Origin: a virus
Taxonomy: Duplodnaviria; Caudoviricetes
DNA: 64,000 nt
Virus record (IMG/VR): IMGVR_UViG_3300020420_000671
Direction: 5' to 3' (one strand)
Part shown: piece after piece, positions 29,435 to 64,000 of the stretch
How the letters are laid out: each line of letters opens with the position of its first letter
Numbering within the stretch: position 1 is the first letter of the stretch
Position numbers and translations under genes: made by a program
Notes under the pieces: generated by a model
Seen by the model: only the letters and a program-made list of their open reading frames with translations
Told to the model about the DNA's origin: nothing
The model's database searches: none

Positions 29435-31039
29435 ATGAGTGAAAAAGAATATGTTGTTACCTTAAACAAAGGTGTAGACTACTCACAATTCAATCAAGAA
29501 ATGATTGCTTCGACTGGAGCAGGAGATATTCCAGATAGAACTGTTGATGTAGCTAACGCTAGACACTTGTCTACAAGAAACACACACTACGCCTTAACAG
29601 ATGCTGAAGCTGTAGCATTAAGAAATGACGCAAGAGTGACTGACGTACAACTTCGTCCAGAAGACAGAGATGATATTGAAATTGGATATGATGCTATACA
29701 GACGGCAGATTTTAACAAATCATCTGCAGACTCAGGAGATTACAGAGACTGGGGTAAAATAAGACATAGCTTTGTAGAAAACAAATATGGAACATCAACT
29801 TCTTTAAGTTCAAATCCATTTGATAGACCTTATTCAATGGATGGAACTGGTGTAGACGTTGTTATACAAGATAGCGGTCTACAGGTAGACCATCCTGAAT
29901 TTAGAGATGCTGACGGAAACAGCAGAGTACAATTAATTGATTGGTTTGCTGAATCAGGAGTTACAGGATCACAAGATGCTAACCATTATAGAGATTATGA
30001 TGGACACGGTACACATTGCGGAGGAACAGCAACCGGATTAAATTTTGGTTGGGCCAGTAACGCTAGAGTGTATAGTGTTAAGGTAGGTGGATTGGAAGGT
30101 AGTGGAGATTCAGGAACAGGTATAAGTATCAGTAGTTGTTTTGATGTAATCAAAGGCTGGCATCAAAACAAACCGATTGATCCAAAGACAGGATATAAAC
30201 GTCCAACCATTGTAAATGCTAGTTGGGGTTACAGTGGAAACATAGGAAGTAGTTTTAGCAACATAGAAAGCTATGTGTATAGAGGAGTAACTTATAACTC
30301 AAGCACAGCAGGCTGGTCAAGCACAACAGCATATCATAGAGACACATATGGATTTTATCCTTATTATAGATTTCCAGTTTACAGATATCCATTAAGGGTA
30401 GCTGATGTTGATGCTGATGTACAAGATTGTATAGATGCTGGTGTACATATTTGTATAGCCGCAGGTAATAATAGTTTCAAAGCAGATACTTCCGTAGGGC
30501 CAGGAGTTGATTACGATAATGTAATTTTTTGGAGTGGTGGTTCAAACAATTACTATCACAGAGGCAGTTCACCTTTTGATGAAACAGCTAACATGGTAGG
30601 TTGTACAGATAGCACTCCTGAAAACGCAACAACAGAAAGAAAGACTAGTTTCAGCACAACAGGACCTGGGGTGTCAATATTTGCCGCTGGTGAAAATATT
30701 ATGAGCTGTTTCAGTACAACAAATAGATATACTGATGGTGCGTACTTTGGAGACAGCAGTTTCAGAGTAGGAAATATAAGCGGAACATCAATGGCATCAC
30801 CACAGGTATGCGGAGTGGGTGCTTTATATTTACAAGCTGATCCTAGCTTAACTCCAGCCCAATTGAAAAATAAATTAGAAAATGATGCCTTGGCAGTTTT
30901 GAAAGATGAATCAAACAACGCTAACTACGGTGACACAACAGATATATGTGGTGCTGAAAACAGAATGTTGTTTAATAGATACAATAGAGCAAATCCTTAT
31001 ACTAGTAACATATACGGTATGAGAAAAAAGAATAGGTAA
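29435..31039 (+). CDS. S8 (subtilisin-like) serine peptidase, probably virion-associated
   Basis: Catalytic triad VDVVIQDSG / HGTHCGG / SGTSMASPQV. Confidence 0.92.
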   Translation: MSEKEYVVTLNKGVDYSQFNQEMIASTGAGDIPDRTVDVANARHLSTRNTHYALTDAEAVALRNDARVTDVQLRPEDRDDIEIGYDAIQTADFNKSSADSGDYRDWGKIRHSFVENKYGTSTSLSSNPFDRPYSMDGTGVDVVIQDSGLQVDHPEFRDADGNSRVQLIDWFAESGVTGSQDANHYRDYDGHGTHCGGTATGLNFGWASNARVYSVKVGGLEGSGDSGTGISISSCFDVIKGWHQNKPIDPKTGYKRPTIVNASWGYSGNIGSSFSNIESYVYRGVTYNSSTAGWSSTTAYHRDTYGFYPYYRFPVYRYPLRVADVDADVQDCIDAGVHICIAAGNNSFKADTSVGPGVDYDNVIFWSGGSNNYYHRGSSPFDETANMVGCTDSTPENATTERKTSFSTTGPGVSIFAAGENIMSCFSTTNRYTDGAYFGDSSFRVGNISGTSMASPQVCGVGALYLQADPSLTPAQLKNKLENDALAVLKDESNNANYGDTTDICGAENRMLFNRYNRANPYTSNIYGMRKKNR

Positions 31040-31057: not shown

Positions 31058-31756
31058 ATGGCAATACAAACAGTAAACATAGGAACAATAGCAAACGACG
31101 GTACAGGTGATGACCTACGTGAAGCGTTTGTAAAAGTAAACAACAACTTCGCAGAACTAGATGCTAGAGATCCTGAAAAAACCACAGGTGCTAATCTTGG
31201 CACATCGGGTGAAGGAGTATTTGCTCAAGTAAGTGCCGCAGAGATGCAGTTTAAAAAATTAGTAGCTGGCACGGCCGTAAGTTTAGCAAGTGACAACAAC
31301 ACTATTACAATTAATTCTACAGCAACTGGCTTACCGCAATTACAGGTGTTTGCTGATAATACTAATGCTACTTTTGACGCTAACAATACAGCATTAACAC
31401 TAGCAGGTGGAAATTTAGTTACAACAAATTTAGTTGGAAGCACAATAACTATTACTTCAGAAACTTCGTTGTTTACAGACACAACTCCTAAACTTGCCGC
31501 AAACTTAGATGGACAACAAAAAGAAATCATTAATACAAGTGATATTAAAAGTACAATATATGGCGTCGATATTAGAAATATAAAAGATGTTGCTCCATAT
31601 TTAACTTTTGATCAAGGTCTTGCTTTTCCAACATCTTTCAGTAGTTCATTAGACTACCTAGTTGACGCCTTAAGCGTTGACTTTGACAACGGAACATCTA
31701 CATTTACAGCATCAGCATTACCTACCGCAGATATGGGTACACTTCCTACAGCATAA
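31058..31756 (+). CDS. Structural protein with gp9/gp10-like N-terminal anchor
   Basis: VNIGTIANDGTGDDLREAFVKVNNNFAEL; late TAAATA at 31037. Confidence 0.82.
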   Translation: MAIQTVNIGTIANDGTGDDLREAFVKVNNNFAELDARDPEKTTGANLGTSGEGVFAQVSAAEMQFKKLVAGTAVSLASDNNTITINSTATGLPQLQVFADNTNATFDANNTALTLAGGNLVTTNLVGSTITITSETSLFTDTTPKLAANLDGQQKEIINTSDIKSTIYGVDIRNIKDVAPYLTFDQGLAFPTSFSSSLDYLVDALSVDFDNGTSTFTASALPTADMGTLPTA

Positions 31757-48575: not shown

Positions 48576-48604
48576 TTGACATTTGACAAAGAAAGTAATA
48601 TAAT
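48576..48604 (+). promoter_or_regulatory. Perfect sigma70 promoter, 6 nt before the ATG
   Basis: TTGACA-N17-TATAAT-ttaact-ATG 48611. Confidence 0.88.
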
Positions 48605-48610
48605 TTAACT

Positions 48611-49696
48611 ATGAGATTTAGAGATATTAAAATTGCTGAAGCGAATAAAGGATCTAACGTAGTAAGGTATAACACCGAACTGGCGATGTTGACTGCTTTC
48701 AGTGGAGGAACAACTTTAAAAGATATTCCAGATGAAGCACTTGTCAATCCTAAAGCAACAAAAGTTGAAATAAAAAAGGTAGCCAAGTACTTTGATCAAA
48801 AAAAGTTTGATCAATGGATGACAATTAGTAATACATATAAAGAAAAAATATTATCTCATAGTGGAAAATTACCTCAACAATATGATTGGGTTGGCGGAAG
48901 CAACATAGGACCAGTAGCTGATTTAGTATTTAAGGATCATCCAGCTAGTGGAATAAGTGTAAAAGACGCATCCGGAATTACTCTAGCAAATCTAACACCT
49001 AAGGCTCTAGGTTTGGAACCATTGAAGGGCAAAGATGTGTTTCAATCATATGCTGATAAAGAATTTAAAAAATTTAAGATAAGAGTTTTTAATTTAATGA
49101 TGGACGAAGCAGAAGCAAGTCCTGGACAAGTTATACATCCAAGACCTAGTGGAAAAGAACGAAGTATGATGTTCGATGAAGAAAGTAAAAAATTTGTAAT
49201 TAAATATGACAAAGGTGTATTGAATCTTGATAGGAATGAAGTAATAAGAACTTCACCAAAAAATGCTTTATGGCAAAGAGTATTTGGTGATTGGTATCAA
49301 TCTAATTTTCAAAAATACAAAGACATAATGCGGCCACTTGTAAAAACAATTTCAAGAAGCTTCAAAGAAATAATGGGTAATGCTCTTTCAGATAGTGATA
49401 CCCTAAAAAAACTTTTACAGTTTGAAGACAAACCTTACTACTATGCTACTCCAAAAAAAATGTATTTTGTTCCGTCTGCCAAAGAGGCAGGAGATCTAGA
49501 ACTTAAAGCAATTGACTATGATGATCCAGATGGTACCAGTCAATTATTTAAAGCAAAGATTGGTAATGTTAACAGTGACGATGGAGCAGTCATAGATATC
49601 TACATACGTTTTGCAAATGGATTATTTGCTACTAATTCAACAGCCCGAGTACAAAGTATTAAGAACCCTGAACTGATAGCTTGGGACCTCATATAA
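48611..49696 (+). CDS. Putative PD-(D/E)xK nuclease-like protein with capsid-targeting-like leader
   Basis: N-terminus MRFRDIKIAE; ADLVF...GISVK motif. Confidence 0.5.
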   Translation: MRFRDIKIAEANKGSNVVRYNTELAMLTAFSGGTTLKDIPDEALVNPKATKVEIKKVAKYFDQKKFDQWMTISNTYKEKILSHSGKLPQQYDWVGGSNIGPVADLVFKDHPASGISVKDASGITLANLTPKALGLEPLKGKDVFQSYADKEFKKFKIRVFNLMMDEAEASPGQVIHPRPSGKERSMMFDEESKKFVIKYDKGVLNLDRNEVIRTSPKNALWQRVFGDWYQSNFQKYKDIMRPLVKTISRSFKEIMGNALSDSDTLKKLLQFEDKPYYYATPKKMYFVPSAKEAGDLELKAIDYDDPDGTSQLFKAKIGNVNSDDGAVIDIYIRFANGLFATNSTARVQSIKNPELIAWDLI

Positions 49697-49709: not shown

Positions 49710-50558
49710 ATGGACTATTACGATCTATTAGGCGTATCAAGACAAGCCTCCGACAAAGACTTAAAAAATGCTTTCAAAAACAAAGCCAGAGAACACCATC
49801 CCGACAAAGGTGGTGATCCTGAAAAGTTCAAACAAGTCAACGAGGCTTATCAAAATTTAAGCGATCCTCAAAAGCGTCAGATGTATGATCAATTTGGAAC
49901 TACTGACCCACAACAAGCAGGTTTCAATCAAGGCGGACAAACTTTCCATTTTACAGGAGATGGCTTTGGTGGTGGTATTAACATTAATGATATAATGAAC
50001 CAATTCGGTATGGGTGGTTTTGGACAAAGACAAATGGCTAACCAGGATGTCACGATCGGGTGTAGGATAACACTTAATGAAATATATACTGGTAAGAATG
50101 TTATTGCTAATTATAGACTTAATAATGGACAAGAACAAACTGTAGACATAAAGATTCCACCTGGAATAATTCCCGGAGATAAAATTAAATATTCAGGAAT
50201 GGGTCAAAGGGATATAAATGGTATTCCTCCAGGAGATCTATATGTTCAAATTCAAGTTTTAAGAGATAGAGATTGGGCTATCAATGGACTGGATTTGTTG
50301 ACAGAAAAGAAAGTGAGTGTTTTAGATTTGATGACAGGAACAACATTTAATGTAGACACTCCGGCAGGCAACAGTATAAGACTTACAATTCCAAAAGGCA
50401 CACAACCTAATACTGTATTCAACGTAACAGGAAAAGGCTTACATAACAGAAGAACAGGTAATATAGGAAACATACATGTCAAAATAATAGGTACAGTTCC
50501 TAAAAATTTAGACAACGAAGATGTAAACGCAATTGAGCAAATACGGAGAAAAAATTAG
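49710..50558 (+). CDS. dnaJ: DnaJ-family co-chaperone (J-domain plus C-terminal domain, no Zn finger)
   Basis: DYYDLLGV...HHPDKGGD..KFKQVNEAY; G/F-rich linker; GDLYVQI. Confidence 0.93.
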   Translation: MDYYDLLGVSRQASDKDLKNAFKNKAREHHPDKGGDPEKFKQVNEAYQNLSDPQKRQMYDQFGTTDPQQAGFNQGGQTFHFTGDGFGGGININDIMNQFGMGGFGQRQMANQDVTIGCRITLNEIYTGKNVIANYRLNNGQEQTVDIKIPPGIIPGDKIKYSGMGQRDINGIPPGDLYVQIQVLRDRDWAINGLDLLTEKKVSVLDLMTGTTFNVDTPAGNSIRLTIPKGTQPNTVFNVTGKGLHNRRTGNIGNIHVKIIGTVPKNLDNEDVNAIEQIRRKN

Positions 50559-50587
50559 TTGACAAATATGTGTGAAATATGTATAAT
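50559..50587 (+). promoter_or_regulatory. Perfect sigma70 promoter overlapping a late TAAATA, upstream of clpA
   Basis: TTGACA-N17-TATAAT-AAATA. Confidence 0.85.
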
Positions 50588-50613: not shown

Positions 50614-52875
50614 ATGGTTGAACCATCTGAAGAATTACAGGTAGTTTTTGAAAAAGCAAATAAAGATGCTAAAAAGTTAAAACATGATTATGTTACTTTA
50701 GAGCACTTGTTTTTTGCGATGTGTTGTAGTGACAACTTTATGAAGATACTAGAAGGGTATGGAGTAACTATTACAAAACTTAAAGACGAACTACATGACT
50801 ATCTTCAAAACAAATTAGATGATATCAAGAGAACTGACGACAAGCCGTATAAACCAAAGAAAACACAAACTGTTGAAAGAGTCATGAACAGAGCTTTCAC
50901 TCAAGTCTTGTTTAGTGGTAGACAGCATATTGATATTACTGATGTATTTTTATCTATGCTTAATGAGAAAAAATCATTCAGCACATACATTGCGACAGCA
51001 AACGGAGTTAACAAAGATAAGTTTAATGAATATATTAACGCCGAATATGTTAGCACTATCGAAGATGAGGAATTAGCAGGAGTTGCCCAAAGGGCTTTAA
51101 GAGCATTTACGACTAACCTCAATACTAAAGTTACGCAAGGTAAAATAGATCCTGTAATTGGCAGACAAGACGAGCTTGAAACGATATGTTTAAGTTTAGG
51201 TAGGCGTTTAAAGAATAACGTTTTGCTAGTAGGAGATCCAGGCGTTGGTAAAACTGCTATAGCCGAAGGTTTAGCATATAGAATTGTTAACAAAGTTGTT
51301 CCTAAGTTCCTAGAAGAATATAGTGTTTACAATCTAGATATAGGCTCAATGTTAGCAGGCTCTAAATATAGAGGAGACTTTGAAGAAAGATTTAAATTAG
51401 TTATGTCAGCTATTAAAAAGCAAGGCAAAACAATAGTATTCATTGATGAAGCACACATGATTAACGGTGCTGGTGCTGGTGGCGGAAACAGCTCAAATGA
51501 TTTGGCCAATATGTTGAAACCAGCTCTAGGTAAAGGTGACATCAAGGTTGTTGCTTCAACCACTTGGGAAGAATATAGAAAATACTTTGAGAAAGATAGA
51601 GCACTAATGCGTAGATTTCAACGTGTAAGTGTTGATGAACCTGATAAGAAAACTTCAGAAGATATCCTTAAAGGTATTAAAAAGTATTACGAGGACTTTC
51701 ATAACGTAGTAATTACAGATGAGGCGATTGACGAGTCAATCAAATTAAGTGTCAAATACATGACTGATAAAAAATTACCTGATAAAGCTATTGACTTGAT
51801 TGATCTAGCATGTTCAAGATTTAATTTGAAAGAAAAAGTACCGGAAGTTAAGACTGTAACTCCTGAAGAAATAAAGTTCGAACTTGCTAAGGTAGTAAAT
51901 TTACCTCCAGAACAAATACAACAAAAAGAAACAAATAATTTAAGTAAACTTAATAAAAACTTAAAACTAAATGTATATGGCCAGGATAATGCTATAGATG
52001 AAATAGTTGATAAGATCTTGGTAGCACAGGCAGGACTTAAATCAGAAGATAAACCAATTGGTTCATTTGTTTTCATGGGTCCAACTGGTGTAGGTAAAAC
52101 TGAATTAGCAAAACAATTGGCTAAACATTTAAGCATTAATTTAGCAAGATTTGATATGAGTGAATATCAAGAGAAACATAGTGTAAGTAAGCTGATTGGT
52201 TCACCTCCAGGATATGTTGGTCATGATGAACATTCAGGACAGTTGATTAATAAACTACAGGAACATCCTAATTGTGTATTGTTACTAGATGAAGTAGAAA
52301 AAGCACATCCTGATATTTCGCAAATTCTATTACAGTTAATGGATAACGGAAAAATTACAGGTAGTGACGGTAAAGAAGCAGACGCTAGAAATTGTATTTT
52401 AATATTAACAACTAATCTTGGTGCTGAGCAGGCAGAAAAAAATACAATAGGATTTAGTCAAGATATGGATATCGCTTATGGAGATGAGGAATTTAAAAGA
52501 TTCTTTGCTCCTGAATTTAGAAATAGACTTGACGGTGTTGTTGTGTTTGGAAAACTAGACAAACCAATTATGTTAAAAATTGTTGGAAAATTCCTAGTTG
52601 AGTTGAGAAATATGTTAACGGATAAAAATGTAAAATGTGAAATATCTGATTCTGCTTTAGATCATCTAGTCGATAATGGGTTTGATAGCAAGATGGGTGC
52701 TAGACCTATGCAGAGATACATAGACAAAAACATTAAACGTCCTTTAAGTAAATTACTGTTGTTCGGTGAATTAAAAGATGGCGGCACAGTAAAAATTGAT
52801 ATTGAAAAAGATCAAATAAAACTTATTCCACTAGAAAAAAAGGTCACCCATGTTACTGAAAAAGAAAACAGCTAG
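50614..52875 (+). CDS. clpA: Clp ATPase (ClpA type; two AAA+ domains, no middle domain)
   Basis: Clp-N domain, GDPGVGKT, KYRGDFEER, FIDEAH, GPTGVGKT, DMSEY.EKH.VSKLIGSPPGYVG, IGF loop, PEFRNRLD, GARP. Confidence 0.94.
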   Translation: MVEPSEELQVVFEKANKDAKKLKHDYVTLEHLFFAMCCSDNFMKILEGYGVTITKLKDELHDYLQNKLDDIKRTDDKPYKPKKTQTVERVMNRAFTQVLFSGRQHIDITDVFLSMLNEKKSFSTYIATANGVNKDKFNEYINAEYVSTIEDEELAGVAQRALRAFTTNLNTKVTQGKIDPVIGRQDELETICLSLGRRLKNNVLLVGDPGVGKTAIAEGLAYRIVNKVVPKFLEEYSVYNLDIGSMLAGSKYRGDFEERFKLVMSAIKKQGKTIVFIDEAHMINGAGAGGGNSSNDLANMLKPALGKGDIKVVASTTWEEYRKYFEKDRALMRRFQRVSVDEPDKKTSEDILKGIKKYYEDFHNVVITDEAIDESIKLSVKYMTDKKLPDKAIDLIDLACSRFNLKEKVPEVKTVTPEEIKFELAKVVNLPPEQIQQKETNNLSKLNKNLKLNVYGQDNAIDEIVDKILVAQAGLKSEDKPIGSFVFMGPTGVGKTELAKQLAKHLSINLARFDMSEYQEKHSVSKLIGSPPGYVGHDEHSGQLINKLQEHPNCVLLLDEVEKAHPDISQILLQLMDNGKITGSDGKEADARNCILILTTNLGAEQAEKNTIGFSQDMDIAYGDEEFKRFFAPEFRNRLDGVVVFGKLDKPIMLKIVGKFLVELRNMLTDKNVKCEISDSALDHLVDNGFDSKMGARPMQRYIDKNIKRPLSKLLLFGELKDGGTVKIDIEKDQIKLIPLEKKVTHVTEKENS

Positions 52876-53533
52876 TCTCTTTTACAACAAGTATCTTTAT
52901 AAGCTAAGACTACGTAACCCTATTGGTGCTATTTTTAGGGGTATGAATCTAGGATTTGCTAAACAAAAGCTAGATGAAATGCAAAGAGATGCTGAAGCAG
53001 ATATATCAATTAAGAGTCCATTCCGTGTTTGGCGTGGTGAATCGAAACACATTAGCTTAGAATTGTTCATGGATAATTGCGTAATTTATTCTTTTTTAGA
53101 GAATAACAAGGCAAAAGCATCAGTACGTTGTGAAGGACAAAAACTCGATATCTATTCCAACGAACCTAATTGGTTATTGGAACTAGCAGAAAAAATTGGA
53201 GCAATTGAATTCCATGAGCCTGCCACAGATGATATAGCAAATTTTTTAGCTAACAATGCTGTAAACACAGTAGTTACAGATAAAGACAATGAATGGCCTT
53301 ACAAAGCCTTTTTAGCAAAAAGAGTTGATAGTAGATTTGCTGATTTTTGTAGACAAAATTCAAAGCACATAAAAATAGGAAACAGAGCATTAAGGGCTAT
53401 AGAAAAAGACCATTGGACACAAGGTTTTTACTTTAGATGTAAAACAGAAAAATATCTTATGTTAGCTAAGATAGCCGCAGGAACTGGAATTACCAAAGTC
53501 ATCAAATATGTTAGCGAGAACGATTTGGCATAA
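52850..53533 (+). CDS. Hypothetical protein
   Basis: 227-aa ORF. Confidence 0.75.
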   Translation: MLLKKKTASLFYNKYLYKLRLRNPIGAIFRGMNLGFAKQKLDEMQRDAEADISIKSPFRVWRGESKHISLELFMDNCVIYSFLENNKAKASVRCEGQKLDIYSNEPNWLLELAEKIGAIEFHEPATDDIANFLANNAVNTVVTDKDNEWPYKAFLAKRVDSRFADFCRQNSKHIKIGNRALRAIEKDHWTQGFYFRCKTEKYLMLAKIAAGTGITKVIKYVSENDLA

Positions 53534-53541
53534 ATACTTGT

Positions 53542-53892: not shown

Positions 53893-54159
53893 ATGGAAAA
53901 CTTTATCAACATCGTTTTTGACACAAAGCAAGAAGTAGATGACATAGTTGTCTCTGAAGTAGCAACATCAGCATCAAATGCCTTACTAGAAGAAGAAACA
54001 GGCTACGAGCTGTACGACACAAACGATGGCAAAACAGTTCTAACAGTTGAAACACATGTACAACTAGATGAACAAGCGTCAAATGATGTGGCAAAGAAAA
54101 TAGCAAATAAATTATTTGATTTAGGATATAATAACTTTGACATTGAAGTGAGTGTCTAA
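53893..54159 (+). CDS. Acidic hypothetical protein
   Basis: 88 aa; SD AAGGA. Confidence 0.7.
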   Translation: MENFINIVFDTKQEVDDIVVSEVATSASNALLEEETGYELYDTNDGKTVLTVETHVQLDEQASNDVAKKIANKLFDLGYNNFDIEVSV

Positions 54160-55229
54160 TGCGTTTTTATCATTTTAAACTAGACGAAAAGGTTCGACCG
54201 CCACGTCCTCAGACTGGTTTAGATCCTGAGCGTCTAAAAAAAATTGATAGAATTACACGTAAACTACAAAGCGATCCTGAACTAGTAGATGAAATTTTTA
54301 CCCAGATAAGCACTAAAGCAAAAGACATAGAAGGCAATTTTATTAATAGATTTATAGCTATGTTGAATCCGGATAATACTAGACCGGAAGCAGATCAAGC
54401 ATTTTCAAACTTTTTAAGAAAGTATGCTGAAGTTATTTCCGAAGTTGAAAGTACAACAGAAGAAAAATTTGCTTTTATTGGTAATCTAGGAAAGAAAAGC
54501 TATGTAGACACAGGTAAACTTTTAAAGCCAGGAAAGTCAAGCTGGGACGATTGGTTAGCAAATGACGACTTTGCCAGAAAATTATTTGACCATGCGTTCG
54601 GCGATCCAAGACTTACTACTGACAATAAGGGTCCAGGCGAAGCGGCCCTGGCTATTCTTTCTCCAGATATAAAATTATCAATTGGCGGAAGTGGTGACAT
54701 AGAAGTAAAAAATACACCAGTTGAAGTAAAAGCGGCGGCTGGACAAAGCACAGGTGCTGGAAGGCTTACTCCAACAAAAAACACTCTCGGTAATTATGAT
54801 TCTAAGGTAGTAGCTAAAATGTTATTTCCAAACGATCAAACCAAGCAAGATGCGTTAAATCAAAATTATAGAAACTGTTCAGCAAATATTTTTGGTAAAT
54901 TTGTAGAAGATTTTCAACTAGAGACTAATCAAGTACAAACTTTACTATCTAATATATTCAAAGAAGAAAGCATACAAGACATGGTTTCTAAGGTTGCGGC
55001 AAAGGGTAAAAACATAACTGGAAAAGACCTTCTTGGATTAAGCATTTACAATTACGGTAGATCACAAAATGATGAACATTTTTTAATACTTGTTAAGTCC
55101 ACTAGATCCAGCTTATATTTCCAGATAGACAATTGGGATCAGCCTGGTCTACAATTTGGTTTAACTGTGTTTGGAAGCGATGCACGTACTGTAGGTCAAA
55201 CGCAAATTGGAATCTTAAAGAGAGCTTAA
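54159..55229 (+). CDS. Putative PD-(D/E)xK nuclease-like protein with capsid-targeting-like leader
   Basis: N-terminus MRFYHFKLDE; GPGEAAL...SGDIEV....VEVKA. Confidence 0.55.
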   Translation: MRFYHFKLDEKVRPPRPQTGLDPERLKKIDRITRKLQSDPELVDEIFTQISTKAKDIEGNFINRFIAMLNPDNTRPEADQAFSNFLRKYAEVISEVESTTEEKFAFIGNLGKKSYVDTGKLLKPGKSSWDDWLANDDFARKLFDHAFGDPRLTTDNKGPGEAALAILSPDIKLSIGGSGDIEVKNTPVEVKAAAGQSTGAGRLTPTKNTLGNYDSKVVAKMLFPNDQTKQDALNQNYRNCSANIFGKFVEDFQLETNQVQTLLSNIFKEESIQDMVSKVAAKGKNITGKDLLGLSIYNYGRSQNDEHFLILVKSTRSSLYFQIDNWDQPGLQFGLTVFGSDARTVGQTQIGILKRA

Positions 55230-55577
55230 ATTTTTTTCTCTATCTAAAAACTTATATTCAACTTTTTCTGGTTCAAACTGCTGTAAGGCATCAAATACTT
55301 TTTGTATATCTAAAGGACCGCATGTATAAACATCTAATTGTATTAACCCAGGTTTACATTCATCCCAAACATGTATAGCAACATGACTGGTTTCTATAAC
55401 AGTCACACAGGTAATACCTCTATTGCCTTCCATATCGCAATACTTTGCGTAGGGACCTAGCATGATTCTCATGCCTATTGACTCTATTAAACTTTTTGCC
55501 CAACCCACTATTTGATGTTCGTTATTAGGTGGATTCTTTACTTCTGACCTAACAATCAGATGCTTGTGCTGTAACAT
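55215..55577 (-). CDS. speD: S-adenosylmethionine decarboxylase proenzyme
   Basis: KHLI, GNRGITCVTVIETSHVAIHVWDE, IQLDVYTC. Confidence 0.88.
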   Translation of the reverse strand: MLQHKHLIVRSEVKNPPNNEHQIVGWAKSLIESIGMRIMLGPYAKYCDMEGNRGITCVTVIETSHVAIHVWDECKPGLIQLDVYTCGPLDIQKVFDALQQFEPEKVEYKFLDREKNLSSL

Positions 55578-55620
55578 AAGCGTATCCTTTTTAGGTTCTA
55601 CTTATCTCGAACTAACTTTT

Positions 55621-55644
55621 GTATTTACATATATTGATAAATAC
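55621..55644. promoter_or_regulatory. Back-to-back late promoters (inverted repeat)
   Basis: GTATTTA-N10-TAAATAC between speD and the head-cargo cluster. Confidence 0.6.
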
Positions 55645-55672
55645 TTTATAATAACGTATACAAGGTGTTATC

Positions 55673-56542
55673 ATGACAAAAACATTTAAAGATTATCTAA
55701 AAGAAAGCGGTTTACAGTACTATACTGGTGTTAAAAAACACGGTGAAGAGTACATGAAAAAAGCGGCTAAAGCAGGTCGTGAAGGAGCTAGCCAAGAAGA
55801 ACTAGGACGCCTAAAGGACAAATACAGTAAAGCAGAAAAGAATAAAAAAACTACTGAAGCTGATATGCAACGTGGCATGGGTGCTTTAGATAAATTTAGA
55901 GAATTATATAGAAAAGGTATTGGCACAAATGATGACGAAGTTGTTTTGAAAGAGTTGATTGACGTAATTAATGATGATACTTTACAAGATGATTTTCCAC
56001 AACTTAAATCTTTTACAAGTGCATCACCGTTTGACGACTCAGAGATAGTCCAAGCAAAAGATGTACCTGGAAATAGTGCTGATGAAAAAATTATGTCACT
56101 CATAAAAGCAATTGATGATGATTCATGGGTAGATGGTTTCGCTCAAATGTTGACGAAAGATTTCAACATGAGTGATAATGAAGAACTTGATAGAGTTCAG
56201 GAACTTGCTGGTGTACAAACAAATGAAGAAACATATGATGGAGATGATTTCTATAATAACTATGGTGACATGTGGTACAACGAAGATGAGATCATGGACG
56301 AAGCAGAATATCAAGGACGTAAAGTAAAGCTAGGCAAACCAATGCGTGGCGATGTAAAAAAGTTCAAAGTATACGTTAAAGATCCAAAAACTAAAAATGT
56401 TAAAAAAGTAAACTTTGGTGATCCTAACATGAAAATTAAAAAATCTAATCCGGCACGTAGAAGAAGTTTCCGTGCTAGACACAACTGTGATAATCCAGGA
56501 CCAAGAACAAAAGCTAGATATTGGTCATGTAGGAAATGGTAA
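55673..56542 (+). CDS. Modular internal-head-like protein with C-terminal DUF6321-like basic module
   Basis: MTKTFKDYLKE leader; C-terminal KKVNFG...RRRSFRARHNCD.PG...KARYWSC. Confidence 0.75.
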   Translation: MTKTFKDYLKESGLQYYTGVKKHGEEYMKKAAKAGREGASQEELGRLKDKYSKAEKNKKTTEADMQRGMGALDKFRELYRKGIGTNDDEVVLKELIDVINDDTLQDDFPQLKSFTSASPFDDSEIVQAKDVPGNSADEKIMSLIKAIDDDSWVDGFAQMLTKDFNMSDNEELDRVQELAGVQTNEETYDGDDFYNNYGDMWYNEDEIMDEAEYQGRKVKLGKPMRGDVKKFKVYVKDPKTKNVKKVNFGDPNMKIKKSNPARRRSFRARHNCDNPGPRTKARYWSCRKW

Positions 56543-56896
56543 ATGAAAATATTTGAAATTTTTAATAAAGAAATAGAAGATAAAATGCCCTACGATGTAG
56601 TAGATGACGTTCATTTTCATTTGCTTAATGACGATATGTTTTATAGAAAATATTATCTTCCGTGTATGGAAAAAATAAGAGCAGAGAAAAATGAAAAAGT
56701 GATTCAAGGTCATATGGATCCTATGATCCATAAAGGAATCAATCATTATGTTATAAAATATGACATAGATAAAACACCCACTGATTTAATGACTCCAGAG
56801 GAAGTAAAATCATTAAAGGACAGGGTTTTGGATCACGAACGAAATCCTGATAAGGAGTTACAAAGTGCACCTGAGACAGATATTCGAAGACCGTAA
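56543..56896 (+). CDS. Hypothetical protein with CTS-like leader
   Basis: MKIFEIFNKE. Confidence 0.72.
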   Translation: MKIFEIFNKEIEDKMPYDVVDDVHFHLLNDDMFYRKYYLPCMEKIRAEKNEKVIQGHMDPMIHKGINHYVIKYDIDKTPTDLMTPEEVKSLKDRVLDHERNPDKELQSAPETDIRRP

Positions 56897-57749
56897 AACG
56901 GCTGTCTTTGCTTTAGGTAGACTGAATCCAGCTACCATTGGCCATGAAAGACTAGTTAACAAAATCAAAGAACAAAAAGGTGATCCTTTCCTTTTCTTAA
57001 CTGACCGACCATCAAAATTACCTGACGATCCTTTAGCACCGCAAGAAAAATTAGAGTGGGCACAAAAAAGTTTTGACGGAATACAAATTAGATTAGCAAA
57101 AACAATAGCTACAGCGGCAAATCAATTATATAGACAAGGTTACAATGAAATTACATTCTTAGAAGGTGAAGATAAATTATTTAATATACTTAAAAATTAC
57201 AACGGAAAGTTTGATGGCAAAAAAGGTCCTATTGAATTTCCCTTTAAGTTCGATAAATTAAATTACGTTAGGCTAGAAAGAAATGCTGACGATCCTGGTG
57301 CTTCAGGAATGAGTGCTACAAAGCTAAGACAATTTGCTCAAAATAATGATCTAGAAAAATTTACTTCAGGACTAGCTCAAAAGGCACAACCAAATGCGGA
57401 AAAAATGATGCGTCAGTTACAAGGAGCATTAGGTGTTGATCCTGTTGAAGAAGATTTACAAGAGCTAGAAGTAAAACAGCAAAAACCAAAGATAGATGTA
57501 TTGAATAACATTGCCGCAAGGACAGATGGAAGACCTTTTCCTTTGAGTTGGAACGCAGGTAAAGATGAAATATCAGTTGGAGGTAAAATGTTTGTATCTC
57601 CAAAGACAGCAAATAAATTTTTACGTTTCTTCGATAATCAAGAAAAGGAAAATCAAGAACTTATGAAAAAAGCACTAGGAAGTGCTAAAACAGCCGCTCA
57701 GCTTTTTAAAAATTTAGGCTTTGAATTTAAACTTGATATGGAGAGATAA
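56865..57749 (+). CDS. HIGH-family nucleotidyltransferase (phage cytidyltransferase-like) with CTS-like leader
   Basis: MHLRQIFE; FALGRLNPATIGH..L, PL..QEK, GMSATKLR. Confidence 0.8.
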   Translation: MHLRQIFEDRKTAVFALGRLNPATIGHERLVNKIKEQKGDPFLFLTDRPSKLPDDPLAPQEKLEWAQKSFDGIQIRLAKTIATAANQLYRQGYNEITFLEGEDKLFNILKNYNGKFDGKKGPIEFPFKFDKLNYVRLERNADDPGASGMSATKLRQFAQNNDLEKFTSGLAQKAQPNAEKMMRQLQGALGVDPVEEDLQELEVKQQKPKIDVLNNIAARTDGRPFPLSWNAGKDEISVGGKMFVSPKTANKFLRFFDNQEKENQELMKKALGSAKTAAQLFKNLGFEFKLDMER

Positions 57750-57961
57750 TGGATATTAAAACTCTTCAAAAACTTGCTGGCATAAATGAATTTCAAGGTT
57801 ACAGACCTGTTAGCATAGAAAATATGAGTCATACTGCTAGTGCTTTGAAGGCAAAGGAAAAGCGTTTAGGAGTAAAACCAGGCGATCGCGATTGGTTCAA
57901 GTTGTGGTTTAACTTACCTTACCTTACTGGTCCTGCTCAATTTAGGAGTAGAAAGAAATGA
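57749..57961 (+). CDS. Small protein with CTS-like leader
   Basis: MDIKTLQKLAGINE. Confidence 0.7.
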   Translation: MDIKTLQKLAGINEFQGYRPVSIENMSHTASALKAKEKRLGVKPGDRDWFKLWFNLPYLTGPAQFRSRKK

Positions 57962-58506
57962 AAATAAGACAAATTTTTGAAGCAGTTGAAGGTAAACTAG
58001 AACTAACAAAATTGCCTTATAAAACAGGAGATCTTTCTCCAGTTCTTTCTAAGGACAATGTAGAATATCATTATAATGTGCTATCCAAAGGATATGTAAA
58101 TAGATATAATAATCAAGAAGGTGATCCAAAATTTAATTATGGTGGTGCTATGTTACACAATTTATTTTGGTCACAACTAAAGAAACCAGCAGGGTCAAAT
58201 TTACCTACAGGAGCAATTAAAAATTTAATTGAAGAAAACCATGAAGACTATTCTACGTTTAAAAATAGCGTGGTAGTTTTAGCAATGGGTATACAAGGTA
58301 GTGGTTGGGTCTATCTATCAAAAAACGGAGATCTTAAAACAACTCCTAATCAAAGTTATAAAACAGATATACTAATGCCTATAGATATGTGGGAACATAG
58401 TTTTACTGATTATATTCCGGCAAAAGATGCTAAGAAAAAGTATTTACAAAACATATTTAAGATAGTAAACTGGGACGTAATAAACAATAGGATAGACGGA
58501 AAATGA
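57958..58506 (+). CDS. sod: Fe/Mn superoxide dismutase with CTS-like leader
   Basis: MKIRQIFE; LPY..DL.P.LS...VEYHY, HNLFW, GSGWVYL, IDMWEH; all four metal ligands present. Confidence 0.9.
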   Translation: MKIRQIFEAVEGKLELTKLPYKTGDLSPVLSKDNVEYHYNVLSKGYVNRYNNQEGDPKFNYGGAMLHNLFWSQLKKPAGSNLPTGAIKNLIEENHEDYSTFKNSVVVLAMGIQGSGWVYLSKNGDLKTTPNQSYKTDILMPIDMWEHSFTDYIPAKDAKKKYLQNIFKIVNWDVINNRIDGK

Positions 58507-61500
58507 AATTTGGTGATTTCAAAGTAAAAGAAGAAGCCGCTGGCGTTGGCATAATTACAAAACAAAACGCAACCAAAGATGTTCCTGTTGGCGGTGAATA
58601 TATGAATGTGAAAAAACTTGGTTTGGGCAAAGGTAAGCCAAAAAAACATCCTAAAAAAGTACGAGGATCAAAGACCAATGTATTATTCAATTTAGGAATG
58701 GCCGAGAAGGAAGACAAAGGCGAAGACATGAAAGGTTTTGATCCTGAAACAGTACAAGCCCTAGCTAGACTTAGATCCAAATATCCACATGCCAAAGATC
58801 CGTTAGACGCACTTCTAAAATCAGTTCTTGCTACAGATAGAGATAACGATGCTGTTGACGATACGCAAGATGATAAGATCAGTAAAAACAAAACAACGGT
58901 TAGTAAACTTGAACCTGAGATTATAAGATTAAAAAGCAGATTGAGAGATGTAGAACTTCAGTTGAAAAATAAAGTGAAGGTAGGAGAGGCAGAACAATTA
59001 GACGAATTTATCCCCGCAGTGGCCGCAAGAATTGCTACTAGTGTTTTACCTAACATCGCAAAAAATTCTTCGCACCTAGGAGCCACAGGAGCTGGTACAG
59101 CAATAGGTGATAAGTTATTCAAACAGATTAAAAAAACTAGAAATGCCAATAAAGGTGTAGGACTAAAGGGTAGAAATCTAAGAGCTAAACAACTTTCACA
59201 AACCAATGAAGTTACAGCAAAGGATTTAAGTAGCGACAGCGAAGTTTACGTCGATATGGATGGCGTTCTAGCTGATTTCTTTGGTGCTTGGAAAAAACTT
59301 GTAGGTAAAGATTGGCGACAAATAAAAGATTTAGATGGAGCGTTACAGAAGATTAGGGATAAGGAAGATTTTTGGTTAAACATTCCTATTACTTCAAATG
59401 CTATGAATCTTTTAAATTTGATAAAAGAACTTAAAGGCAAATATAATATATTAAGTGCTCCTCTTCCAAACGATCCTAATGCTGAACCCCACAAACGTGA
59501 ATGGATCAAAAAGAATCTATCAGCCTTTCCACCGAGCAAGGTTATAATTACATCTAATAAAGCAGTACACGCTACCCAACCAGACGGAACACCAAACATC
59601 CTAATAGATGACTTTGGGAAAAATATTGAAAAATGGGAAGCGGCAGGCGGTGTTGGATTCAAACACAAGGATCACAAGTTTGAAAGAACTGTTAAAAATC
59701 TTAAACAAAATATGAAAGAAGATCTAGAAGAGCAACAGTTAGATGAATTTTTTCAATATTTTAAAATGTTAAAATATGGTTGGAAAACAGGCATGTGGCT
59801 GTGGAACAACAAATGGGCTATTGCGTTTATAGGCATTTCTTACAAGGCTTTTAAATGGGTTGCTGATGCTATAGCATGGCTTAAACCCTTCCTTGACAAT
59901 CCAGTAGTAAAAGCATTAGGAAGATATGGATTACCTGCTATAGGAGTTGCTATTGCGTTATATGGTGGAAAAAAACTATACGACCAAATAACAAAAGCAG
60001 AGAACGAAAAAGACTTGGAAAAAATATTAGCAAACTTTGAAGCAGATCAAGAAGAACTTGCTATGCTTAAAAAAGAATTAGAAATTATATCGAAAAAAAG
60101 CAAAACTACTGAAGCAAAAATGAGCAAAGATTCCATTAAAAGCATACACAAAACAGCTGACAAAATTAAAGATAAACCAAAAGCCAAAAAGTCAATAGGC
60201 AATTGGGCAAAAGAAAGAGGAATGGATCCTGAAGGAGCAATTTACGCAATAGCTACAAATATGAAAAAGCGTAAGCAAGGAAAAAAAATTACAGGATTAG
60301 GCAAGGAGTCTTACACAAGAGATGAACTTCCACAAATAAGTCAAAAACATTTAGTGAAGATTCCGCACACGATGGAAACTGTTTATGTCAAAGACATAGT
60401 CCCAGTACAAAAAGAAAGATTAAAAGAAAATCATAAAAAACAACTTTACAAAATACTAGATGGAAGATTTAATCCTATTGTGGTAGACTGTTACGATAGA
60501 ATAGTCAACGGTCATCACAGATATGACATCCTTAAAATGCTTCAGATGGAAAGCATTACAGTTGCTAAACTTCCTTTTACATTAGAATTTTTATTAGAAA
60601 TAACTAGAAGAGATTTCTTAAAAGGGCTTGGCGCCACAGCGGCAATGTCCATGGTACCGAAGGCCGCAAAAGCGTTGGCCAACAACAAGGAACAATGGTA
60701 TGTTATAGATGAAAAAGGCAGATTACAAGGACCTATGGATAGTAATAAAGCAAAAACTGTATCCATTGCTTATCCAAAAAAATTACCGGCTATAGAACCT
60801 GCTCCTGAAGGTTTTGAAATAATAATTGCCCAAGGATCAAGTACTAAATTGAATATGGCTTTTACAAAAGCCGAGTTTGCTATAAAGAAAATATATGCTA
60901 GAAGATTTCCTGGAAAGACTGTGAATGTAAATCGCAAAATAATTAAATTACAGGGTAGAGCAATAGAGGCGGCAGGTTCATCTTATGTAGCTACTCAGAG
61001 TGCTTATGTTAAGAAAACTACAGAAGAAAGCGTTGAAGAAGGAAATTTATTATCAAATCCACAGAACTCTATTTTGGTTAGAAAAAAAGATGGTTATGAC
61101 CATTATAAACTTGCCACGCACATAGCAAACATAAAAGGAATGTCACCAAAGGTTGCCGCTAGGAATAAGCAAGACATATTCATTCAATTTTATGGTGGTG
61201 AAAAAGAAAAACAATACATGATGAAAAATCTTAAACGTATAGGATATGATGTACAACCTGCTGATGGATATAAAGATACACATTTCGACGAAAACATAGA
61301 CGGATCATACATATTAAGAGTGAGAGAAAATTTTGCTGATGGTAAGAAAAAAGGTAAAAGTAGACCAGGACGTGTTAAACGTTCAGGAGCAAGTTGTAAA
61401 GGATCAGTTACAAGTTTAAGAGCAAAAGCAAAGAAAGCATCAGGTGAACGTGCTAAGATGTATCATTGGTGTGCTAATATGAAGGGTGGTAAAAAGAAAA

Positions 61501-62423
61501 CTGAAGCATATACCCAAGATGAATTTTTTAAAATTTTAGTAGAAAGTACTCCACAACAGCTCGAAGAAGGTATAGCAGATACACTTAAAAAACTTCCTAA
61601 GAATTTATTATCAAAAGTGACACCTATAATTAAAAAGATCCCAAAGACAGCAAAAAATTTAACCTTAATGGCAGTATTGCTTGGTACAATGGTAAATGCT
61701 GTTGCGGCAGGAGATATGGCCAAAGTCAATACACCACTTGATAAACTTAATAATATGACAACTATGAGCACTACAATGGACACAGGTACTGATGCTGACG
61801 TTGGGCCAGGGCATACAATGCCTGACAAAATAAAGGTATTAAAAATGCCAACACCTCCACCAGCACCGGGTGCAGATACTCCAGATGGAACAAAAAATGA
61901 TGGTACAAACACACAGACAACAAAAGATGGTAATCGTACTGTGTCAAGTGGAGCAGGTACATATACATTTTCACCAGATGGGAAATTATTAAAGTATGAA
62001 ACTCCTAAAATAAAAGGATATCAACAAATACATGATCTAGTTAAAAAAACAGTCACAGTTGATGCTAATACATCTGTTACAATGGACAAAGATTTTGGTA
62101 ACTTATCCAAAGCAGATAAAGAATTATTGAAAAAGAATGATCCTAATTTTGATAAAAGTACATCAGTAATAGATCAAAAAGCAACTTATGACATGAGCGG
62201 TAACCTTATAAGCAAAGATCATACTGGTATAAAGTCCGGAGCAGTATCGATTGGTATTGGTGGAGATGGAAATAAGAGTTTTAAATTTGACGCAGGAGGA
62301 GGAAAGGTATATAAAGCAAGTAGTGCCGATATGCCAGCGGCTAAGAAAACTTTAAGCAAAATGCAGACGGATTTGAACAAAGCAAAAGATCAGAGTGCGC
62401 CATTTGCAAACAAATCGACCTAG
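58503..62423 (+). CDS. 1306-aa modular polyprotein (HAD 5'-nucleotidase, ParB/Srx-like, membrane and signal-peptide modules)
   Basis: MKFGDFKVKE leader; YVDMDGVLADF...LIDD (NT5C-like); PIVVD...IVNGHHRY; TRRDFLK; repeated (L/V/T)xE junctions. Confidence 0.8.
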   Translation: MKFGDFKVKEEAAGVGIITKQNATKDVPVGGEYMNVKKLGLGKGKPKKHPKKVRGSKTNVLFNLGMAEKEDKGEDMKGFDPETVQALARLRSKYPHAKDPLDALLKSVLATDRDNDAVDDTQDDKISKNKTTVSKLEPEIIRLKSRLRDVELQLKNKVKVGEAEQLDEFIPAVAARIATSVLPNIAKNSSHLGATGAGTAIGDKLFKQIKKTRNANKGVGLKGRNLRAKQLSQTNEVTAKDLSSDSEVYVDMDGVLADFFGAWKKLVGKDWRQIKDLDGALQKIRDKEDFWLNIPITSNAMNLLNLIKELKGKYNILSAPLPNDPNAEPHKREWIKKNLSAFPPSKVIITSNKAVHATQPDGTPNILIDDFGKNIEKWEAAGGVGFKHKDHKFERTVKNLKQNMKEDLEEQQLDEFFQYFKMLKYGWKTGMWLWNNKWAIAFIGISYKAFKWVADAIAWLKPFLDNPVVKALGRYGLPAIGVAIALYGGKKLYDQITKAENEKDLEKILANFEADQEELAMLKKELEIISKKSKTTEAKMSKDSIKSIHKTADKIKDKPKAKKSIGNWAKERGMDPEGAIYAIATNMKKRKQGKKITGLGKESYTRDELPQISQKHLVKIPHTMETVYVKDIVPVQKERLKENHKKQLYKILDGRFNPIVVDCYDRIVNGHHRYDILKMLQMESITVAKLPFTLEFLLEITRRDFLKGLGATAAMSMVPKAAKALANNKEQWYVIDEKGRLQGPMDSNKAKTVSIAYPKKLPAIEPAPEGFEIIIAQGSSTKLNMAFTKAEFAIKKIYARRFPGKTVNVNRKIIKLQGRAIEAAGSSYVATQSAYVKKTTEESVEEGNLLSNPQNSILVRKKDGYDHYKLATHIANIKGMSPKVAARNKQDIFIQFYGGEKEKQYMMKNLKRIGYDVQPADGYKDTHFDENIDGSYILRVRENFADGKKKGKSRPGRVKRSGASCKGSVTSLRAKAKKASGERAKMYHWCANMKGGKKKTEAYTQDEFFKILVESTPQQLEEGIADTLKKLPKNLLSKVTPIIKKIPKTAKNLTLMAVLLGTMVNAVAAGDMAKVNTPLDKLNNMTTMSTTMDTGTDADVGPGHTMPDKIKVLKMPTPPPAPGADTPDGTKNDGTNTQTTKDGNRTVSSGAGTYTFSPDGKLLKYETPKIKGYQQIHDLVKKTVTVDANTSVTMDKDFGNLSKADKELLKKNDPNFDKSTSVIDQKATYDMSGNLISKDHTGIKSGAVSIGIGGDGNKSFKFDAGGGKVYKASSADMPAAKKTLSKMQTDLNKAKDQSAPFANKST

Positions 62424-62444
62424 GAAATAAAGGTAAATAATACT

Positions 62445-62663
62445 ATGTTAGTTAGAGAAATAATTAAGGAATACGCTACACAAGGAGCGACTGTCGCAGG
62501 TAATGTACCAGCAGTAGCGAACCCTAGTATGGCTTATGGACATAGACCTAAGGGTAAAAATGGCTTACCACAAGCTCCACAAAAGAAAAACAAGGATGGA
62601 ACAGCTAAAAACGCATTGGATATTAGTAACAATTTAATGGGCGGTAAGACCATTAAGAGATAA
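62445..62663 (+). CDS. Small basic protein with CTS-like leader
   Basis: TAAATA-N5-ATG; MLVREIIKE. Confidence 0.75.
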   Translation: MLVREIIKEYATQGATVAGNVPAVANPSMAYGHRPKGKNGLPQAPQKKNKDGTAKNALDISNNLMGGKTIKR

Positions 62664-62682
62664 ATACTAAAAAGGAAGCAAA

Positions 62683-63618
62683 ATGAGAGAAAAGGACCTT
62701 AAAGAAGATTTAGCAACGCTGGCTTACAAAGCCGAAGCAGACCATGAAGTACAGATGGCTAGATCAGATCTATATAAAATAGCCAAATACTCTATCAAGC
62801 TACACGAAATGATGAAGGGTGTAACTGAGCAAGAGGGTATTGAAGGTTGGGTTCAATCTAAAATTACAAAAGCCGCAGATTACATAGGTTCAGTATACCA
62901 TTATCTAGACTATGAAATGAAGTTTGATGAAATGACTGAAGCTAAAAAAGCAAAACCAGATTACATTGATATTGACGGCGATGGCGATAAAAAAGAGCCA
63001 ATGAAAAAAGCAGTCAAGGATAAAGCTAAGAAGAAAAAAGTTAAAGAAGGTATGATGGACGACGAAGTAAAATCCATACTTATGAAGCATCCAAAAGAAT
63101 TCGCAAAACTGAGAGCATCAGAAGATTTGATGGACGTTTATGGCACTCCGTTATATCAAGAATTGTTTGAATATTTTTCAGATTCAGGTGAAATGCCATA
63201 TGGTACTCAAAAGGGCAGAGACGGTGATCCTGTCCAGTGGATGAACGATGAGCTAGATGACATGGGTGTATTTGACCAACCAGAAAAAATGAATGTATCA
63301 GCCGCAGACAAAAGATTAAACACACCTGCTTTCAAAAAAATGCAAGCCGGAGATAAACGTTATAGTGATAAAACTGAAGAAACATACGAAAGTTATCTAC
63401 AGGAAAAACTTAACAAAACAAGAAAGTATAAAACACTACTGGAATCTGTTGGAAAACCAATTTCAGAAGAAGAATTTGACACCCTTGCTGAGAAACAAGA
63501 TGCTTGTTATCACAAGGTAAAGTCCAGATACAAAGTTTGGCCTAGCGCCTATGCCTCTGGTGCTCTAGTTCAGTGCCGTAAAAAGGGTGCTAAGAACTGG
63601 GGTAACAAGAGCAAGTGA
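62683..63618 (+). CDS. Modular internal-head-like protein
   Basis: MREKDLKE; modules GWVQSKITKAADY, PDYIDIDGDGD, MPYG..K.RDGDP, KQDACYHKVKSRYKVWPSAYASG; TAAATA at 62661. Confidence 0.78.
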   Translation: MREKDLKEDLATLAYKAEADHEVQMARSDLYKIAKYSIKLHEMMKGVTEQEGIEGWVQSKITKAADYIGSVYHYLDYEMKFDEMTEAKKAKPDYIDIDGDGDKKEPMKKAVKDKAKKKKVKEGMMDDEVKSILMKHPKEFAKLRASEDLMDVYGTPLYQELFEYFSDSGEMPYGTQKGRDGDPVQWMNDELDDMGVFDQPEKMNVSAADKRLNTPAFKKMQAGDKRYSDKTEETYESYLQEKLNKTRKYKTLLESVGKPISEEEFDTLAEKQDACYHKVKSRYKVWPSAYASGALVQCRKKGAKNWGNKSK

Positions 63619-64000
63619 AACTAAGACAACTCATAAGCATTATCGAAAACGCTGACCAAGACAGTACAGAAGTCACTGTTGGCAATTATACCACAACACA
63701 TTTTTATATGTGTGGAAGTGCGATCAAGACAGCAGAAAAACACGGGGAAAAGCCCGGTATGGAAGATTTAGTCCGTTTACAAGATATGATTTATAAACTT
63801 GAAAAAGCAGTTATGGATACTGGCGAAGCAACATCTGAAGCAAAACAATTTGCTCAAAAATTACATAACGAAATAATGGATAAAGCAAAAGAGATTGGCA
63901 TCGAAGACGAAATTGTTGACTACCAAGAAGATCATAGAGACAGTATTTTAAAAGGCGATCCTAAGCCTGGATTTGGGCGTGTGGATGTTGAAGAAAATTG
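63615..64000 (+). CDS. Hypothetical protein with CTS-like leader (partial, runs off the window end)
   Basis: Manual: GTG start overlapping the previous TGA; MKLRQLISIIENADQD... open to the end. Confidence 0.7.
   Translation, partial: MKLRQLISIIENADQDSTEVTVGNYTTTHFYMCGSAIKTAEKHGEKPGMEDLVRLQDMIYKLEKAVMDTGEATSEAKQFAQKLHNEIMDKAKEIGIEDEIVDYQEDHRDSILKGDPKPGFGRVDVEEN

Follow-up and report, generated by a model that had tools for sequence, protein, structure and literature searches.

Capsid-targeting propeptides of T4 and probable counterparts in a related phage

In bacteriophage T4, IPI, IPII and IPIII, all internal proteins, together with Alt, carry a short capsid-targeting sequence (CTS) at their N-termini that is removed by the prohead protease gp21 (Mullaney & Black, 1996, via PMC9026906, PMC8442874 and PMC3012670). 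Specifically, the CTS targets the scaffolding core and is cut once after its Glu residue, and the cargo is retained and delivered (PMC8442874; PMC3012670; PMC9026906; PMC5694885). Mutagenesis of IPIII has revealed that residues 4 and 7 of the 10-residue tag decide targeting and that residues 8 and 10 decide processing, and reviews suggest that T4-like phages load varied proteins by means of the CTS (PMC9026906). Here, a comparable set of leaders is described in a 64,000-nucleotide (nt) stretch of DNA, referred to below as the window (IMG/VR record IMGVR_UViG_3300020420_000671), which is a fragment of an uncultured marine phage with 35% GC and nearly all of its genes on the + strand. The leaders, which are found on 11 genes, are likely to be capsid-targeting propeptides of the T4 type that mark head cargo, and the block of genes from 54159 to 64000, along with an outlying gene at 48611, is probably a packaged-protein locus and the counterpart of the internal-protein and Alt genes of T4.

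Many proteins inside the heads of the giant phages phiKZ, 201phi2-1 and SPN3US are likewise cut after Glu by a gp21-related protease and delivered to the cell, although these phages differ from the one studied here in having an S/A/G-x-E motif, propeptides that often exceed 100 residues, and an unrelated phage family and cargo (PMC5694885; PMC10052503).

A common leader on eleven genes of the window

Each leader is 8-14 residues long: Met is followed by a basic residue close to position 2 and by hydrophobic residues at intervals, and the end is [L/I/V]-x-Glu. A preliminary description of this DNA had noted basic and hydrophobic leaders on nearly every + strand open reading frame (ORF) of the block, and all of the N-termini that it quoted are present at their starts in the window, on 10 of 10 + strand genes between 54159 and 64000 as well as at 48611. 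The tagged genes, with protein lengths in amino acids (aa), are as follows:

48611-49696, + strand: outlying tagged gene, 361 aa, leader MRFRDIKIAE; cargo family not recognised; perfect sigma70-type promoter ahead
54159-55229, + strand: tagged gene, 356 aa, leader MRFYHFKLDE followed by a variable linker
55673-56542, + strand: tagged gene, 289 aa, leader MTKTFKDYLKE
56543-56896, + strand: tagged gene, 117 aa, leader MKIFEIFNKE; no recognised family, kept in relatives
56865-57749, + strand: cytidyltransferase-like nucleotidyltransferase, 294 aa, leader MHLRQIFE; GTG start with AAGGAG 7 nt upstream
57749-57961, + strand: small basic tagged protein, 70 aa, leader MDIKTLQKLAGINE
57958-58506, + strand: tagged Fe/Mn superoxide dismutase (SOD), 182 aa, leader MKIRQIFE(AVE)
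58503-62423, + strand: tagged modular protein, 1306 aa, leader MKFGDFKVKE
62445-62663, + strand: small basic tagged protein, 72 aa, leader MLVREIIKE
62683-63618, + strand: tagged gene, 311 aa, leader MREKDLKE
63615-64000, + strand: tagged gene, GTG start, leader MKLRQLISIIE; runs off the end of the window

The sole other gene in the block, speD (55215-55577, minus strand), encodes S-adenosylmethionine decarboxylase, is without a leader, and occupies the same position in the relatives L001, L002 and L006. In L001, the orthologue of the truncated gene at 63615 encodes 309 aa and is the final gene of the cluster, and in L002 the orthologue of the outlying gene begins MRFRDIKIIE.

The tag is real and non-random. 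When N-termini are scored pairwise, with no predefined motif, similarity within the 11 tagged genes is 4.0, as compared to -1.6 +/- 1.0 for random 11-gene sets drawn from the 87 genes of the window, and none of 20,000 such sets reaches 4.0. Similarly, 10 of the 11 cluster genes show the T4 gp21 consensus ([LIV]-x-E, with its Glu at residue 8-14), as against 5 of the 76 others (Fisher 8e-9), although Fisher values are optimistic here because both motifs were defined post hoc, after inspection of the data, a bias of which the pairwise test is free. The one cluster gene outside this consensus is that at 56543, the leader of which ends N-K-E. Paralogy of the genes at 48611 and 54159 was ruled out (E = 0.34), and the shared tags are therefore not due to gene duplication.

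In the T4 record, the N-termini removed by gp21 include MKTYQEFIAE (IPII and IPIII), MKTFKEF... (IPI), MAKINELLRE (gp24) and MLKEQLIAE (gp22), and these and the leaders of the window, judged by their sequences, belong to the same class. In both systems a short propeptide at the N-terminus has [L/I]-x-Glu as its end and is conserved on cargo that is otherwise unrelated, the cargo genes are clustered and variable, and the lineage has a gp21-family protease. The closest match of the set is the leader at 55673, MTKTFKDYLKE, which is nearly that of the T4 internal proteins. The likeness nevertheless lies in class and not in sequence identity, because similarity to MKTYQEFIAE is strong for this leader alone: ungapped BLOSUM scoring does not set the cluster apart (p = 0.10 in the window and 0.57 in G007, a relative described below), and only 55673 scores high, at 30. 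Direct homology to the T4 CTS was accordingly abandoned as an argument for the whole set. A profile trained on five T4 propeptides separates tagged from other genes mainly through the Glu that cluster genes have at residues 6-14, and its top ranks are mixed. Moreover, the T4 numbering of residues 4, 7, 8 and 10 fits only in part the leaders at 55673, 54159 and 56543, and the 8-9-residue tags (MKIRQIFE, MLVREIIKE) cannot be placed on it.

Further differences from T4 are evident. The tags of the window are looser and often shorter (8-9 residues in the MKLRQLFE type), the cargo genes number at least 11, among them those for recognisable enzymes and for the 1306-aa multi-module protein, and the source is a distant marine relative of ~350 kb, the predicted cargo of which is not homologous to the T4 internal proteins. 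Consistent with the last point, searches of the tagged cargo against T4 internal-protein families gave no Pfam or PHROG match, such that only the tag resembles IPI, IPII and IPIII. The propeptides of T4 gp24, gp22 and gp21 (the last being MNEPQLLIE) also have a residue pattern that recurs in several leaders, for example MKINELLTE of G007 and MLVREIIKE and MKIFEIFNKE of the window, but those T4 proteins are shell, scaffold and protease with conserved bodies, whereas the bodies found in the window are accessory enzymes and basic proteins.

The leader as a portable element

Several comparisons show that the leader is an add-on that is independent of the cargo. Firstly, 20 homologues of the 356-aa protein, with identities down to 39%, retain the leader M-R-[YA]-x-[EQ]-F-x-x-E in forms such as MRYxxFKLVE and MRAFEFLTE; M1 and R2 are invariant, and the leader is followed by an indel-rich linker and then by a well-conserved body. 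An AlphaFold model of this protein (pLDDT 74) displays the same division, with leader and linker of low confidence or disordered and the body of high confidence. Secondly, orthologues of the NT5C nucleotidase-containing protein bear three variants of the tag, namely MKFGDFKVKE in the window, MRGYNFIRKANE in L006 and MKLRQLFE in L108. Thirdly, families occur with and without it: bacterial FeSOD has no tag, and the DUF6267/T4-GC71 family has a tagged copy in G007 (MRLRQLFKE), whereas cyanophage copies begin directly at the conserved motif, untagged.

Scanning IMG/VR DNA with a degenerate pattern for M-K-[ILFM]-[RS]-Q-[ILFM]-F-E identified 111 loci, including 83 matches at the starts of ORFs of at least 60 aa. 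These 83 matches correspond to 58 unique proteins in 13 cargo families (single linkage), most of them cytidyltransferase-like, with SOD and others also represented. Among the matches, the Leu, Arg and Gln codons of the tag vary freely; since the peptide stays the same through synonymous codon changes, selection acts on the tag at the level of the peptide. The extension of the tag that the preliminary description credited to this phage is not new to it: many uncultured T4-like jumbo phages carry the tag, and T4-like cyanophages already have it on the homologous core genes. Two phage records of ~60 kb (G018 and G019), which have an MKFRQIFE start and no gp21, were treated as a chance or unrelated match.

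Relatives and head proteases of the gp21 type

By comparison of the 356-aa protein, close IMG/VR relatives of the window include L001 (98% identity) and L002 (90%), and the GenBank phage collection contains neither a near-identical record nor a homologue of this protein. CheckV rates a 78-kb relative as 22% complete, and other syntenic fragments agree on an expected genome of ~350 kb. L156, a JGI contig of 346,728 bp, encodes another homologue of this protein with 69% identity, and genes near it are those for heme oxygenase, a ferredoxin-dependent bilin reductase, ClpS, HSP20, ribosomal protein S21 and curli CsgF/CsgG. Because L156 carries pigment genes, there is a hint of a cyanobacterial host for this group of jumbo phages.

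The 64-kb window contains no head module and no head protease gene; gp21 homologues, the identification of which the preliminary description had proposed, are found in relatives. One of these, the 167.5-kb IMG/VR record G007, is colinear with the window over ~35 genes (identities of 67% for ClpA, 61% for the clamp loader and 57% for the ligase) and possesses a head module in T4 order: the gp20 portal, two small core-like genes, gp21 (Peptidase_S77), the gp22 scaffold and the gp23 major capsid protein. Directly after ClpA, G007 has a tagged cluster of its own, with leaders MRLRQLFKE, MKLRQLFE, MRANEFITE, MRAKEIFE, MRAKEFIKE and MKINELLTE. Likewise, a Peptidase_S77 (PF03420) gene is present in all three tag-bearing IMG/VR records that are at least 90% complete (G003, G006 and G017) and in three further partial tag-bearing records; G001, G002 and G008-G012 gave no gp21 match, but those records are only 5-37% complete. 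The tag therefore co-occurs with proteases of the gp21 type.

Virion-associated homologues in cyanophages

Among the closest described parallels outside T4 are virion proteins of T4-like cyanophages. The family of the nucleotidyltransferase at 56865 is T4-GC190, a core family of cyanophages, members of which start MKKFSAFL[NKT]E or MKSFSQFLTE (S-SM1, P-SSM4, P-SSM2 and S-RIM8) and have neighbours that start MLSFKELQE or MLSFRALSE. The T4-GC190 tag fits the T4 numbering (F4, F7, L8 and E10): it is aromatic at residues 4 and 7, with Leu and Glu at residues 8 and 10, the positions that are decisive in T4 IPIII. In addition, the 311-aa protein at 62683 has modules in common with T4-GC119 (S-SM2_109, S-RIM8 gp114) and P-SSM4_156, and the C-terminal module of the protein at 55673, which is basic and contains Cys (phrog_7595), recurs in T4-GC119, a virion protein encoded between g16 and g17 in cyanophages. 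Mass spectrometry of purified S-SM1 virions yielded 25 counts for GC190, 13 for GC119, 10 for GC1454 and 7 for GC1455 (Sullivan et al., 2010; PMC3037559, Table S8).

The resemblance thus comprises homologous families or modules (56865 and 62683), the same kind of leader (MKKFSAFLNE, MLSFKELQE) and genes clustered outside the main structural module. The cyanophage clusters differ in that they are smaller and in that no SOD or NT5C polyprotein has been reported from them, and the authors of the proteomic study drew no link to a targeting tag (Sullivan et al., 2010; PMC3037559). Within the library of papers searched, none ties these cyanophage proteins to a capsid-targeting tag.

Predicted cargo

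Metabolic enzymes had been proposed as cargo, and domains of an Fe/Mn SOD, a cytidyltransferase-like nucleotidyltransferase and an NT5C nucleotidase are indeed found. The SOD (57958-58506) matches Sod_Fe_N with 43.9 bits and Sod_Fe_C with 63.1 bits (Pfam cut-offs 27 and 20.9, respectively) as well as SODs in the PDB at E ~1e-20. Residue 14 of this protein aligns with residue 2 of E. coli FeSOD, leaving an N-terminal extension of 13 residues, and its orthologue in L006 begins MKIRQLFE. For the nucleotidyltransferase, the family match begins at residue 3-9. Enzyme domains had been said to begin right after the leader Glu; this holds for these two genes.

The 356-aa protein encoded at 54159 is less readily assigned. 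E161, D180 and E189-x-K191 are invariant among its aligned homologues, and the best fold matches to its model are the restriction endonucleases HhaI, NhoI, MspI and HinP1I, with weak scores (Z 3.3-3.8; Foldseek E 0.48) and no Foldseek match in the PDB at E <= 0.001. A resemblance to PD-(D/E)xK nucleases is suggestive only and, because the fold scores are weak, the protein is called nuclease-like only as a lead. Among the smaller proteins, that at 57749 has an L-K-K-L-A-G-I-N-E-F motif that is kept in relatives.

The 1306-aa protein contains an NT5C nucleotidase, an internal segment resembling a twin-arginine translocation (Tat) signal and many internal hydrophobic-x-Glu sites. Its orthologues are 973 aa (L001) and 613 aa (L006) in length, and the blocks that are present or absent are bounded by LEE|QQLDE|F (406-416), LLE|ITRRDFLK (Pfam TAT_signal, 697-718) and VEE|G (844-846), such that one of the bounding hydrophobic-x-Glu sites directly precedes the Tat-like segment. 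The position of these boundaries fits a processing of the protein into modules.

Promoters of the tagged block

The preliminary description held that late promoters drive the block, a claim that stands in part. The block has no copy of the canonical T4 late promoter TATAAATA, of which the whole window contains five copies as compared to 9.7 expected. On the + strand, however, 13 of 16 copies of the shorter core ATAAATA lie no more than 40 nt upstream of a gene start, a location for which 4.9% of positions in the window qualify. Copies in or just ahead of the block are found at 53530, 53857, 55637 and 62660, the first two being the nearest such elements upstream of the first tagged gene. These elements and the sigma70-type promoters of the region include the following:

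48576-48604, + strand: perfect sigma70 consensus TTGACA-17-TATAAT (12/12), upstream of the tagged gene at 48611
50559-50587: perfect sigma70 consensus TTGACA-17-TATAAT, upstream of the ClpA-like gene
53530-53536, + strand: ATAAATA late-promoter-like core, 5 nt ahead of the ATG at 53542
55624-55652, + strand: sigma70-like promoter TTTACA-17-TATAAT (11/12), upstream of 55673; overlaps the ATAAATA core at 55637
62660-62666, + strand: ATAAATA late-promoter-like core, 16 nt upstream of 62683

Late expression of the block is plausible but not exclusive, because sigma70-like promoters precede 48611 and 55673. At several genes, ATAAATA is located just 3-5 nt ahead of the start codon (ATAAATACTTGY-ATG), a spacing that suggests late mRNAs with almost no leader; further start-site copies include those at 12537, 46780 and 47459.

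Proposed mechanism and alternative explanations

Under the packaging interpretation, the propeptide would bind the scaffolding core during head assembly, and the protein that bears it would be enclosed in the prohead. A gp21-family prohead protease would then cut after the leader Glu and probably also at comparable sites that separate modules within the 1306-aa protein, and the mature cargo would remain in the head with the DNA and likely exit with it at infection. Cleavage, packaging and injection in the phage studied here, like the role of the cargo, are what we infer, and a counter-defence role, as raised in the preliminary description, is conjectural. The central idea of that description, that the leaders are T4-type capsid-targeting sequences, is well backed by circumstantial evidence and by the published virion proteomics of homologues.

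Some observations weigh against packaging. The likeness to the T4 CTS does not go beyond class level, and a score trained on T4 propeptides places only some cluster genes at the top, intermixed with other genes. Hydrophobic and Tat-like segments, such as those of the 1306-aa protein, are unusual for head cargo. In cyanophage S-PM2, the orthologue of the cytidyltransferase has a different N-terminus and went undetected in S-PM2 virions. Lastly, the strong sigma70-type promoters ahead of 48611 and 55673 suggest that some expression may be early.

The most serious alternative, in effect a narrower version of packaging, is that the proteins enter the prohead without being delivered as active enzymes. 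The tag would still target the prohead core, but the proteins would be assembly or core components, or neutralisers of DNA charge, that end up degraded or inert, and there would be no 'first-strike kit' of the sort envisaged in the preliminary description. Such a fate has a precedent in the T4 core proteins with cleavage sites of this kind (gp22, gp67 and gp68), which are mostly degraded and expelled (PMC5694885), and it would suit both the abundance of internal hydrophobic-x-Glu sites in the 1306-aa protein and the very basic nature of several cargo proteins (net charges of +72 for the 1306-aa protein and +8 for each of two small tagged proteins). The SOD, nucleotidyltransferase and NT5C domains, however, retain their family signatures, and the cyanophage homologues persist in mature virions with many peptide counts; we regard an inert cargo as unlikely.

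A second alternative, and a distinctly improbable one, is that the shared N-terminus has no sorting role and instead reflects a translation-initiation region (A-rich codons with Lys or Arg at position 2), a generic helix or a recognition peptide for a modifying enzyme. MK starts are favoured in AT-rich genomes, and the weak discrimination by the T4-trained score would be in keeping with such an origin, but the motif is rare among the other 76 genes of the window, the peptide is kept despite synonymous codon variation, translation leaves the conserved Glu and the hydrophobic residue at -2 unexplained, and no modifying enzyme is seen beside the clusters.

Least probable of all is that the leader serves as a degron or chaperone handle for phage proteostasis (a ClpA-like unfoldase, ClpP and DnaJ) that times protein abundance without being a capsid signal, since, although DnaJ (49710-50558) and the ClpA-like AAA+ gene (50614-52875) adjoin the cluster upstream in the window and in all syntenic relatives (L087, L091, L071 and G007), ClpP lies at 4967-5551 in the window, and ClpS is encoded, with HSP20, on a relative's contig, G003 has ~14 tagged genes and gp21 with no ClpA match, the tagged homologues of T4-like cyanophages end up in virions, and the tag fits the gp21 cleavage consensus.

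Other features of the window

Three ORFs elsewhere in the window (19203-27089, 27089-27370 and 31058-31756; one of 2628 aa) begin with a common module of ~28 residues, …G-x-x-x-x-D-G-T-G-D-x-[LI]-R-x-A-F-x-K-x-N, which is probably a fibre-attachment domain that they share. Interspersed with these ORFs are genes for an S8 subtilase (29435-31039) and a 985-aa Ig-domain protein. The window also contains tRNA genes:

2234-2308: tRNA-Trp(cca)
6403-6479: tRNA-Arg(gcg)
7580-7655: tRNA-Thr(tgt)

Implications for T4-like phages

The mechanism considered here is that known from T4 and is unchanged; it is the reach of the tag and the list of its cargo that are widened. What is new is the colinear relative bearing gp21, the breadth of the MKLRQLFE-type tag, and the tie to virion-associated proteins of cyanophages. 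If the packaging interpretation holds, a simple N-terminal rule would find the packaged proteins of a large, abundant set of uncultured T4-like phages of marine and freshwater environments, and would explain the old puzzle of why the cyanophage core 'cytidyltransferase' and its neighbours are present in virions. It would also provide candidates for early-acting functions, namely the SOD, the nucleotidyltransferase, the nucleotidase and the possible nuclease, as well as natural tag variants for T4-based protein-delivery vectors.

A more far-reaching combination, which we consider doubtful, is that the tag loads enzymes in working form (the SOD, the nucleotidyltransferase as an NMNAT-like enzyme, the nucleotidase as one acting on dNMPs, and the nuclease-like protein) together with a protease-cut polyprotein, one module of which would expose its Tat signal only after cleavage, so that export back to the host periplasm might follow injection. 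Should this be true, genomes alone would suffice to read which proteins are injected by uncultured T4-like phages, among them cyanophages.

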